DNA of 64,000 nt from Escherichia coli. GTDB lineage: Bacteria; Pseudomonadota; Gammaproteobacteria; Enterobacterales; Enterobacteriaceae. Positions within the stretch are counted from its first letter, which is position 1; every line of letters begins with the position of its first letter. Location: NCBI RefSeq assembly GCF_003334385.1, contig NZ_QOWN01000004.1. One strand, given 5' to 3'. The position numbers and the translations under genes were made by a program. This document shows positions 22,711 to 52,051 of the stretch, piece after piece. Under the pieces are notes generated by a model that worked only from the letters and a program-made list of their open reading frames with translations, was not told the origin of the DNA and searched no databases.

Positions 22711-22899
22711 CAGGGACATCCTTTTATCATCGGGAATACGAAAGAAAAGGGAGAATAAACGCCTTACTTATAGAACAGTGAAGAATGCCACAATTTTACG
22801 CTTTGAAAATGATGACACTATCACAGTTGGCGCATTCATTAACGATAGGGTATAAGTAAAACAATAAGTTAACACCGCTCACAGAGACGAGGTGGAGAA

Positions 22900-23640
22900 A
22901 TGTTAGATCAAGTATGCCAGCTTGCACGGAATGCAGGCGATGCCATTATGCAGGTCTACGACGGGACGAAACCGATGGACGTCGTCAGCAAAGCGGACAA
23001 TTCTCCGGTAACGGCAGCGGATATTGCCGCTCACACCGTTATCATGGACGGTTTACGTACGCTGACACCGGATATTCCGGTCCTTTCTGAAGAAGATCCT
23101 CCCGGTTGGGAAGTCCGTCAGCACTGGCAGCGTTACTGGCTGGTAGACCCGCTGGATGGTACTAAAGAGTTTATTAAACGTAATGGCGAATTCACCGTTA
23201 ACATTGCGCTCATTGACCATGGCAAACCGATTTTAGGTGTGGTGTATGCGCCGGTAATGAACATAATGTACAGCGCGGCAGAAGGCAAGGCCTGGAAAGA
23301 AGAGTGCGGTGTGCGCAAGCAGATTCAGGTCCGCGATGCGCGCCCGCCGCTGGTGGTTATCAGCCGTTCCCATGCAGATGCGGAGCTGAAAGAGTATCTG
23401 CAACAGCTTGGCGAACATCAGACCACGTCCATCGGCTCTTCGCTGAAATTCTGCCTGGTGGCGGAAGGGCAGGCGCAGCTGTACCCGCGCTTCGGACCAA
23501 CGAATATTTGGGATACCGCCGCTGGTCATGCTGTGGCTGCAGCTGCCGGAGCGCACGTTCATGACTGGCAGGGTAAACCGCTGGATTACACTCCGCGCGA
23601 GTCGTTCCTGAATCCGGGATTCAGAGTGTCTATTTATTAA
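22900..23640 (+). CDS. cysQ: 3'(2'),5'-bisphosphate nucleotidase CysQ
   Basis: 246 aa, [22 protein letters not shown]...[12 protein letters not shown]... Confidence 0.96.
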
Positions 23641-24187
23641 TTAATTTATGCAGCAGGTCCATCACTTGCTGCACCTCTTCCTGTGTGAGCGCCCCGTCTT
23701 TGGCCCATTGCACGCGACCATCCTTATCCAGCACCACTACAGCGGAACTTTCTTCATCCAGCTGCCAGGCACCGCGCGCGACGCCATTGCTATCGACAAT
23801 AAACTGCGACCAGGGATAAAGCTTTTTATTACTCTCCAGACTGCTGCGCACAAACATCCCTGAACCCGGAATCGCGTCGTCGGTGTTAACAATGGTGGTG
23901 GTCTGGTAGCGATCGTGCGGTAACTTCGCTGATTTAATCGCTTCAATCAGCGTCGCGTTTTTCTCTTTTGCAGAGGTGCGACCAGCAATATGTTGCAGTA
24001 CTCGCACTTTTCCCACTAACTGTGCGCTGTTCCAGGTTTTGTAGCTAAACTGATCTTTATCAAGCACCAACTCGCCTCGATCGGTAATGCCAATCGGCGG
24101 CACTCGCTGACCGGTTTCGAACTGATGTGCGGAAGCCATCATCGGCAACAGCAGGCAGGTGAGTGCCAGAATCTTGCGTAGGGTCAT
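23630..24187 (-). CDS. ytfJ: Periplasmic protein YtfJ
   Basis: 185 aa with signal peptide [20 protein letters not shown]; 3' end overlaps the cysQ 3' end by 11 bp. Confidence 0.9.
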
Positions 24188-26123: not shown

Positions 26124-26297
26124 ATCTTATCCGACCTTTCAGGCCAGATCCTCGGAAGGGGAAGTTGATTAATTTGTGTGAAATACACATTGAAAGCCGA
26201 TTCGAAGAAAGTGAACCGGCATTTTCAGTGGCTAGTATAGCGTAAGGTACTGTAAAGTCGCCAGAGGGTTAAAATTCAGACTGCTGATAAATGCAAT

Positions 26298-26402
26298 ACT
26301 GCCTGATGCGCTATGCCAATCAGGCCTACGCAGTCCTTGCAATATATTGAATTTGGACGATTTTGTAGGCCTGGTAAGGCGTTTACGCCGCATCTGGCAT
26401 AA
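26298..26402. repeat. REP/BIME cluster between ytfL and msrA
   Basis: tgcctgatgcgctatgccaatcaggcctacg ... gtaggcctggtaaggcgtttacgccgcatctggca: inverted REP units. Confidence 0.75.
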
Positions 26403-35324: not shown

Positions 35325-35435
35325 GCTATGCCTGATGCCGATTCGTAGGCCGGATAAGGCGCTCGCGCCGCATCCGGCGGTGGTGCGCTGAAGCCTGATG
35401 CGACGCTTACCGCGTCTTATCATGCCTACTGGGAG
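35325..35435. repeat. REP/BIME cluster between ytfQ and ytfR
   Basis: gcctgatgccgattcgtaggccggataaggcgctcgcgccgcatccggcgg ... gcctgatgcgacgcttaccgcgtcttatcatgcctac. Confidence 0.75.
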
Positions 35436-41561: not shown

Positions 41562-41695
41562 CGGCCTTAGCCTGATATAGTGTGCGTAGGCCGGATAAGG
41601 CGTTCACGCCGCATCCGGCATTTGAGCATAGTGCCTGATGCGACGCTTGATGCGTCTTATCAGGCCTACAGGTGCACCGCATCCGGCAAACCATA
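41562..41695. repeat. REP/BIME cluster between mpl and yjgA
   Basis: gtaggccggataaggcgttcacgccgcatccggca ... gcctgatgcgacgcttgatgcgtcttatcaggcctac ... ccgcatccggca. Confidence 0.8.
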
Positions 41696-51779: not shown

Positions 51780-52051
51780 TATATCGCCATAAATGCTACG
51801 AATATTATTGGATTCTCCTTATTATTTGCGGCGCTTTTTTCACTTACCGGAGGTTATATGGAACCTGATCCCACGCCTCTCCCTCGACGGAGATTAAAAC
51901 TTTTTCGGTAAGCCCGTCTTTTCACGGCGTTACCGGATGCGTAAGGCCGTGACGTTTTAACGTCCCTGCTCAGCTTTATTACCTTCAGGTAAGGCTTCGC
52001 CACGCCTGAAGACATTTCTGTACTGTTTCAGACAGTGCGGAGGGACTCCTT
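51780..52051 (+). promoter_or_regulatory. mgtA 5' leader (Mg2+/proline-responsive attenuation region containing mgtL)
   Basis: ~270-nt untranslated leader between the PhoP box and the mgtA start, containing the mgtL ORF; boundaries approximate. Confidence 0.5.
51858..51911 (+). CDS. mgtL: mgtA leader peptide MgtL (proline-rich, 17 aa)
   Basis: ATG at 51858 after GGAGG; encodes [17 protein letters not shown] within the long mgtA 5' leader. Confidence 0.8.

Follow-up and report, generated by a model that had tools for sequence, protein, structure and literature searches.

How two convergent genes come to run into one another with no DNA between them, and where their transcripts then end, are questions raised by cysQ and ytfJ in a stretch of Escherichia coli DNA of 64,000 nucleotides, the whole of which is referred to here as the window. 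A reading of the letters made without database searches (the sequence-only reading) had placed the stop codons of both genes within an 11-bp tail-to-tail overlap, and had placed an additional gene, ytfI, between cysQ and ytfJ in K-12; ytfI was proposed to be either an insertion of the K-12 lineage or a gene deleted from the window. The same reading held that the overlap leaves no room for independent terminators and that the two transcripts must overlap antisense. The explanation that we arrived at, and that we hold as a whole with considerable confidence, is that the overlap is ancestral, that ytfI was inserted in a subset of strains and that hairpins embedded in the coding ends of the two genes would define the 3' ends of their transcripts.

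The cysQ/ytfJ junction in the window and in K-12

In the window cysQ and ytfJ form a convergent overlapping pair, in which both genes are intact and full length. The features of the junction are listed in Table 1. The encoded CysQ is equal in length to K-12 CysQ and 98.8% identical to it, while YtfJ matched NCBIfam TIGR01626 from end to end with a score of 306.8 bits (cut-off 151). The six-frame ORF list of the window contained no ORF between cysQ and ytfJ. An identical sequence, NZ_CP025842 from strain 720632, is annotated in RefSeq with the same coordinates and the same 11-bp CDS overlap. The overlap and stop positions of the sequence-only reading were exact by the ORF list, the raw sequence and this RefSeq annotation. 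The overlap is real, is neither an annotation nor a sequencing artefact, and is conserved in relatives. Hairpins A and B, which lie to either side of the stop codons, are separated in the window by an AT-only spacer that is specific to E. coli; the same position in other genera reads ...TTTAYTGAGCAGCTT...

Table 1. Features of the cysQ/ytfJ junction, with positions in the window
Feature	Position	Strand	Sequence	Description	Source
cysQ (3'(2'),5'-bisphosphate nucleotidase)	22900..23640	+		246 aa; TAA stop 23638-23640	ORF listing
Hairpin A	23608..23624		CTGAATCC-G-GGATTCAG	~cysQ codons 239-244/245	Inverted repeat I5
Overlap of the cysQ and ytfJ reading frames, tail to tail	23630..23640		CTATTTATTAA	11 bp	
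ytfJ (YtfJ family periplasmic protein)	23630..24187	-		185 aa; TAG stop 23632-23630 (CTA on the + strand, 23630-23632)	ORF listing; stop from raw sequence and six-frame ORF list
AT-only spacer between hairpins A and B	23632..23649		ATTTATTAATTAATTTAT	E. coli-specific; stops in several frames, both strands; inverted repeats I3, I4 and I16	
Site of inserts in other strains and species	23641..23648				Junction comparison
Hairpin B	23649..23673	+	TGCAGCAGGT-CCATC-ACTTGCTGCA	ytfJ codons V172-H180	Inverted repeat I1

Comparison with K-12 DH10B bore out the presence of ytfI. The gene order there is cysQ, ytfI (312 aa, + strand) and ytfJ, the stop codons of cysQ and ytfJ lie 1,212 bp apart, and direct juxtaposition of the two genes, as found in the window, is absent from K-12. 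In its flanks the K-12 cysQ-ytfI-ytfJ locus (b4214-b4216) is like the window, with cpdB, cysQ, ytfJ, ytfK, paeA/ytfL and msrA in the same order and orientation; it differs in that the window is without the 1,212-bp segment and that cysQ and ytfJ overlap there by 11 bp. On the left side, homology between the window and K-12 continues through the cysQ stop codon, directly after which the 1.2-kb ytfI segment of K-12 starts. On the right side homology restarts at TGCAGCAGG within ytfJ, and between these two points the window has 8 bp (TTAATTTA) as against ~1.23 kb in K-12.

The last ~5 codons of ytfJ have been rebuilt in K-12, where the protein ends in ...DLLQKLLK*, compared with ...DLLHKLINK* in the window, and ytfJ of the window is one codon longer than that of K-12. 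The ytfJ tail in K-12 (…GAGCAACTT…) is closer to the junction of E. whittamii and Citrobacter than to the E. coli-specific AATTAATT form. The likeness suggests either that the two haplotypes, one with ytfI and one empty, diverged before the E. coli-specific change arose at the junction, or that recombination brought in the ytfI allele.

Distribution of ytfI and the ancestral arrangement

A 901-bp query spanning the junction was compared with 5,426 complete E. coli genomes and matched 5,421 of them. A single contiguous match, as in the window, was obtained in 3,797 of the 5,421 genomes, and in the rest the match was split at the junction; the window therefore holds the majority allele (70%). 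The ytfI segment was present in 1,623 of the 5,426 genomes (~30%), which included K-12, O157:H7, O55:H7 and clinical and animal isolates, and the homologues of YtfI include Shigella flexneri proteins. ytfI is not restricted to the K-12 lineage, and K-12 represents the minority state at cysQ/ytfJ. The junction sequence, TCTATTTATTAATTAATTTATGCAG, was identical in four diverse E. coli without ytfI, which were 96.8-98.4% identical to the window over the query. A third, rare allele was found in SCPM-O-B-7615, in which a 385-aa pentapeptide-repeat gene lies on the - strand at the same site, and this allele is present also in E. albertii (L009).

A scan for YtfJ with one genome per species yielded 80 loci from the Enterobacteriaceae, in each of which the stop codons of cysQ and ytfJ were located. 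The stop codons overlapped in 74 of the 80 species, by 11 bp in 40, by 7 bp in 28 and by 4 bp in six. Among the taxa with an overlap were Escherichia whittamii and other Escherichia, Citrobacter, Salmonella enterica subsp. arizonae, Klebsiella and Raoultella, together with Kosakonia, Enterobacter, Lelliottia, Trabulsiella and some Kluyvera. The two genes were separated in the other six loci: by 1,230 bp with a ytfI-like gene in a divergent E. coli (L007), by 1,504 bp with a pentapeptide-repeat gene in E. albertii, by 2,120 bp in Citrobacter youngae ATCC 29220, by 904 and 905 bp in two Kluyvera and by 71 bp in Kluyvera intermedia. As the overlap occurs in 74 of 80 species, it is the ancestral state and ytfI is an insertion. 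In the window the two convergent housekeeping genes retain this compact, ancestral layout, and nothing has been lost here.

The opposite course of events, in which E. coli possessed ytfI from the start and a later deletion removed it from the window's lineage, making the juxtaposition a derived loss, is highly improbable. ytfI has evidently resided in Escherichia for a long time, its alleles being diverse (69-98% protein identity) and extending to the divergent E. coli-like locus L007, and decay or loss of the gene does occur, as witnessed by many truncated copies (251, 261 and ~180 aa) and matches to IS1. Against this, the overlap is shared from Citrobacter to Enterobacter, the ytfI segment is compositionally foreign, and the deletions seen elsewhere scar the junction and harm ytfJ. 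A true deletion of the insert was found in ETEC1738 (L088), where it was mediated by IS1, left 164 bp of the insert and truncated ytfJ to a pseudogene; in K. intermedia (L070) the 71 bp are a remnant, with ends like those of the insert in its congeners. When the junction of the window was checked for such marks, namely insert residue, an IS element or damage to either flanking gene, none was present. The empty junctions sampled in E. coli were all identical, and no ytfI remnants were seen at empty junctions. Deletion is also implausible because it would have had to recreate the exact ancestral 11-bp overlap together with the tail of the 185-aa YtfJ. Loss of ytfI from the window's lineage is effectively refuted. 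Of the two origins offered by the sequence-only reading, insertion is upheld by the 74 of 80 overlapping loci and the foreign GC content and deletion falls, while the restriction of the insertion to the K-12 lineage does not survive the 1,623 genomes that carry it, O157:H7 and O55:H7 among them.

The K-12-specific ytfI segment has a GC content of 29-39% (35% overall), compared with 50-60% in the flanking genes. A word-indexed search of 5.8 billion proteins returned 17 clusters of YtfI relatives, all from Escherichia or Shigella and many of them truncated, and a HMMER pass for distant relatives over 1.84 billion representatives recovered only fragments of YtfI itself. YtfI had no match in Pfam or NCBIfam, and an AlphaFold2 model built from a shallow alignment had a mean pLDDT of 50. 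A PADLOC match of YtfI to Cas6b was weak (E = 8e-4) and was discounted, and the pentapeptide-repeat protein had no match in PADLOC, so that neither protein gave a convincing match to a defence system. The locus is an example of Higashi et al. (2016; PMC4720273, S10 Fig), in which ytfI is a K-12 insertion not present in SE11 and SE15 and is the nucleation point for H-NS binding that covers cpdB, cysQ, ytfJ and ytfK; the presence or absence of ytfI was therefore already known. An AT-rich orphan silenced by H-NS, ytfI is confined to Escherichia and Shigella.

We considered whether the ytfI segment arose from a transposon-like element and set the idea aside, there being no convincing terminal inverted repeats; an apparent duplication of the overlap segment was too degenerate to count as a target-site duplication. 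With alleles that are 69-98% identical the polymorphism is old, and a single gain spread by recombination and several separate gains both fit. The cargo at this junction varies by taxon and comprises ytfI, the pentapeptide-repeat gene, a radical-SAM pair and a DD-peptidase-like gene. In this respect the junction is like the variable-cargo insertion hotspots between core genes, at which one fixed junction receives differing AT-rich or foreign cargo in each lineage, but the inserts at cysQ/ytfJ are single-gene sized and are without an integrase, a tRNA or recognisable repeats.

Hairpins within the two coding ends

Hairpin B is a palindrome of 9-10 bp that begins 8 nt past the cysQ stop and lies within the end of ytfJ. 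Its folding energy was -15.5 kcal/mol in E. coli (z = -2.5) and about -22 in Citrobacter, and eight inner pairs were paired in 100% of 65 distinct sequences. Its arms are written largely in GTG, CAG and CTG, which are preferred codons anyway. V172 GTG, Q173 CAG and L179 CTG were identical in 71 of 71 species and L178 was CTG in 96%. When the conserved columns of both genes were ranked, the hairpin B codons headed both the Val list (23 columns) and the Gln list (10 columns) and took first and third place among 31 Leu columns; at other invariant Leu and Val residues four to six codons are used. Of 272 columns 14 were invariant in codon, and these included four of the six arm codons (hypergeometric P = 6e-5); it is mainly from these frozen synonymous sites that support for selection on hairpin B is drawn.

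Covariation within the arms was thin. The Q174/L178 pair was CAG/CTG in 65 species, the compensatory CAA/TTG in three and CAA/CTG in three, while CAG/TTG was never found; the CAA/CTG intermediate is a G.U wobble in the cysQ-sense RNA only. Overall, one pair of the ten has changed from G-C to A-U, in three sequences and by way of G.U intermediates, while six pairs do not vary. Scored for direction, the wobbles amounted to about five events against one to two, the terminal pair varying freely, and their assignment of hairpin B to the cysQ sense is no more than suggestive.

The loci in which cysQ and ytfJ have been separated serve as a comparison. The frozen codons have mutated in Citrobacter youngae (GTA) and in two Kluyvera (GTC in L062, AAG and CTA in L063), and both separated Kluyvera have perfect 10-bp non-coding hairpins of the GCAGCAG type right beside the cysQ stop. 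A strong hairpin was located 5-15 nt past the cysQ stop in all insert-bearing loci (8/8), and the hairpin within the ytfI insert shows a compensatory change from G-C to U-A between K-12 and L007. In the insert-bearing alleles of E. coli and E. albertii hairpin B is essentially intact, and relaxation after separation has thus taken place in some lineages only.

Neither hairpin has the form of a complete intrinsic terminator for the gene that runs into it. The tail of hairpin B (CCUCUUCCUG / CCTCTTCCTG) has no U run (at least 5 of 8) after the stem, a terminator consensus scan over the junction did not call hairpin B, and Rfam gave no match at the junction even at E <= 1. The sole terminator-like match of the scan was hairpin A on the + strand. 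Hairpin A lies within the end of cysQ; on the - strand it comes 5 nt after the ytfJ stop and is followed by GAACGACUCG with no canonical U-tract. As an intrinsic terminator of cysQ itself it was rejected, since release 7-9 nt past the stem would precede the cysQ stop. The E. coli palindrome, which contains the rare codons GGA and AGA, differs from that of most other genera, in which the site reads CCCGG-CTT-CCGGG. P241 was CCC in 59 of 71 species, compared with CCG at 71% across conserved Pro columns, and R244 was CGG, AGA or AGG in 50 of 71. CGC at R244 breaks one pair of hairpin A in ~30% of species, and hairpin A is less strictly kept than hairpin B.

Ends of the cysQ and ytfJ transcripts

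Each mRNA contains its own stop codon and so runs at least 11 nt into the opposing gene; the antisense overlap of transcripts anticipated in the sequence-only reading is to this extent unavoidable. The accompanying statement that there is no room for terminators holds for an intergenic terminator, of which there is none, but passes over the conserved hairpins in the last ~10 codons of each gene. Given that there is no intergenic DNA, we infer that the 3'-end signals lie in coding sequence, and the conserved hairpins at the end of each gene probably do the work of the absent terminators. Hairpin B (ytfJ codons 172-180) would supply the 3' hairpin of cysQ, in the capacity of a pause, a terminator or a stabiliser, and hairpin A would probably supply that of ytfJ. 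Together the two hairpins would form a bidirectional terminator lacking a U-tract, in which they would make the polymerase pause and set the 3' ends, whether or not assisted by head-on collision of polymerases or by Rho and subsequent exonuclease trimming. If each transcript ended just past its far hairpin, the mature transcripts would overlap antisense over ~70-85 nt (about 23605-23685), and not indefinitely.

These observations lead us to propose, tentatively, that cysQ and ytfJ each carry, written into their final ~10 codons, the hairpin at which the partner's transcript ends, and that the two hairpins make up a reciprocal bidirectional terminator kept across the Enterobacteriaceae. A reciprocal terminator embedded in coding sequence would account for the fixed synonymous sites as well as for the rare codons, and it would explain why every lineage with an insert duplicates or replaces the hairpin on the cysQ side while the copy internal to ytfJ is free to decay. 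As an alternative, a Rho-terminated transcript may be trimmed back to a protective hairpin.

A literature search found no relevant work on termination or on antisense RNA at cysQ/ytfJ. The bidirectional terminators of convergent E. coli genes are Rho-independent and unlike intrinsic terminators, and they require a stem-loop, which sets the point of pausing and collision of the two approaching polymerases (Wang, Watters, Ju & Liu, bioRxiv 10.1101/2022.10.23.513370). The cysQ/ytfJ junction resembles this class (Ju et al. 2019, SEnd-seq) in that it joins a convergent pair, has stem-loops at its boundaries and is without the hairpin-plus-U-tract signature. It differs in having no intergenic DNA and two hairpins rather than one shared stem-loop, each of them within the opposing gene's coding sequence. 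With canonical intrinsic terminators hairpin B has in common a GC-rich stem of 9-10 bp, a loop of 5-7 nt and a position 6-14 nt past the stop, the difference being a tail that reads CCUCUUCCUG and is not a U-run.

The palindromes might be by-products of the VQQV..LLH protein sequence and of codon preference (GTG, CAG, CTG), without any function in RNA, and the transcripts would then read into the opposite gene until Rho or a collision stopped them at no fixed position. We consider this rather unlikely. It is in keeping with hairpin B having no U-tract and going uncalled by the scan, with six of its ten pairs being invariant and only one showing a double change, and with the arm codons being common ones; Rho silences untranslated antisense transcription, which likewise fits. 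However, in the Val, Gln and Leu columns of both genes invariance is greatest at the arm codons, at the probability given above, hairpin A is built from the rare codons CCC, CGG, AGA and GGA, and in separated loci the frozen codons mutate, while the non-coding hairpin copies of Kluyvera are perfectly paired beside cysQ, all of which argues against a mere consequence of protein sequence and codon usage.

Selection on hairpin B could also have been for another role, such as the stability of ytfJ mRNA, the slowing of ribosomes near the ytfJ stop, or an insertion-prone DNA palindrome that is a protein-binding or recombination site, and this appears improbable. In most genera the ytfJ-sense strand gives an equally good fold of the palindrome, and the terminal-pair variant, CAT at H180, is a wobble in the ytfJ sense only, but the internal wobble variants favour the cysQ sense, and in every species the distance of hairpin B from the cysQ stop, 6-14 nt, is like that of a terminator. 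Where cysQ and ytfJ have been separated it is the hairpin on the cysQ side that is kept, rather than the copy in ytfJ. At least four or five independent insertions at the cysQ/ytfJ junction would suit an insertion-prone palindrome; the ytfI segment, however, has neither terminal inverted repeats nor clean target-site duplications.

In overlapping, cysQ and ytfJ show nothing out of the ordinary, the state being ancestral, and whether a strain has ytfI was already to be found in the literature and in RefSeq annotation; K-12, it should be remembered, has the minority state at this junction. The mildly new point is that hairpins in the coding ends are probably replacing terminators. The locus provides a natural example in which the constraint of a convergent neighbour's 3' end is readable in synonymous sites, with evolutionary controls built in, in the form of lineages in which an insert separates cysQ from ytfJ. 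If the proposal is true, removal of ytfJ would mean the loss of the cysQ 3' hairpin, and caution would be called for in synonymous recoding or gene deletion at such junctions. The concept of the bidirectional terminator would, in that case, extend to gene pairs without intergenic DNA.

The AT-only junction and IS1 deletion of ytfI

The junction of the convergent genes cysQ and ytfJ was found in an AT-only form, ATTTATTAATTAATTTAT, which is common to E. coli strains without ytfI, the AT-rich insert that separates the two genes in K-12. This form contains a perfect 10-nt palindrome, ATTAATTAAT, and within it several reading frames of both strands run into a stop codon. The GAGCAACTT form, which is found in other genera and in the K-12 ytfJ tail, differs from the AT-only E. 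coli junction by four to five clustered substitutions.

In E. coli ETEC1738 an IS1 element has deleted the greater part of ytfI together with the 3' portion of ytfJ; a 164-bp piece of the insert remains, and ytfJ is a pseudogene. This locus is an example of how a genuine ytfI deletion appears.

Other inserts at the junction

A 1.5-kb insert (33% GC) occupies the cysQ/ytfJ junction in E. albertii NBRC 107761 and in the rare E. coli SCPM-O-B-7615; its product, a pentapeptide-repeat protein, has weak similarity to type III secretion effectors of the PipB/PipB2 type and to Qnr-like repeats. In Citrobacter youngae ATCC 29220 the stops of cysQ and ytfJ are separated by an insert of 2.1 kb at this junction, with genes for a radical SAM/SPASM protein of 350 aa and a membrane protein of 298 aa that has a TIGR04222 domain. 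The membrane protein has a C-terminal tail rich in Cys, Gly and Ser, SSCGGSSCGGSSCSGSSCGGSGCGGCGGD, which suggests that the two proteins are a peptide-maturation pair. About 31 bp from the 3' end of ytfJ, including hairpin B (the palindrome in ytfJ codons 172-180), are duplicated beside cysQ in this locus.

Kluyvera genomosp. 1 and K. cryocrescens have a 0.9-kb insert (55% GC) at the junction, the product of which (~295 aa) is similar to DD-carboxypeptidases and DD-endopeptidases of the serine type. In K. intermedia the spacer is just 71 bp long; its ends are similar to those of the 0.9-kb insert, and it looks like the scar of an internal deletion.

RNA family matches in the window

Features located at the junction and Rfam matches in the window
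Feature	Position	Strand	Remarks
AT-only junction	window 23632-23649		
RpsF leader	window 2828-2912	+	Rfam gathering-score match
ES239 sRNA (RF02756)	window 22711-22833	+	full-length Rfam match, 154.5 bits; cpdB-cysQ intergenic region
STnc450 sRNA	window 26185-26242	-	Rfam match; paeA(ytfL)-msrA intergenic region
ES036 (CssrF) sRNA	window 26322-26364	-	Rfam match; paeA(ytfL)-msrA intergenic region
naRNA4 (REP-derived) element, first of two	window 35348-35426	+	Rfam gathering-score match
naRNA4 (REP-derived) element, second of two	window 41589-41666	+	Rfam gathering-score match
Magnesium-II riboswitch (magnesium-responsive RNA element)	window 51843-51958	+	Rfam gathering-score match
Pentapeptide-repeat protein gene, 385 aa	L003 (E. 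coli SCPM-O-B-7615) 2602-3759	-	product of 1.5-kb junction insert
IS1-associated deletion region	L088 (E. coli ETEC1738) 3001-4294		

The ES239 match lies directly 5' of the cysQ start at 22900, and could be no more than the 5' leader of cysQ.
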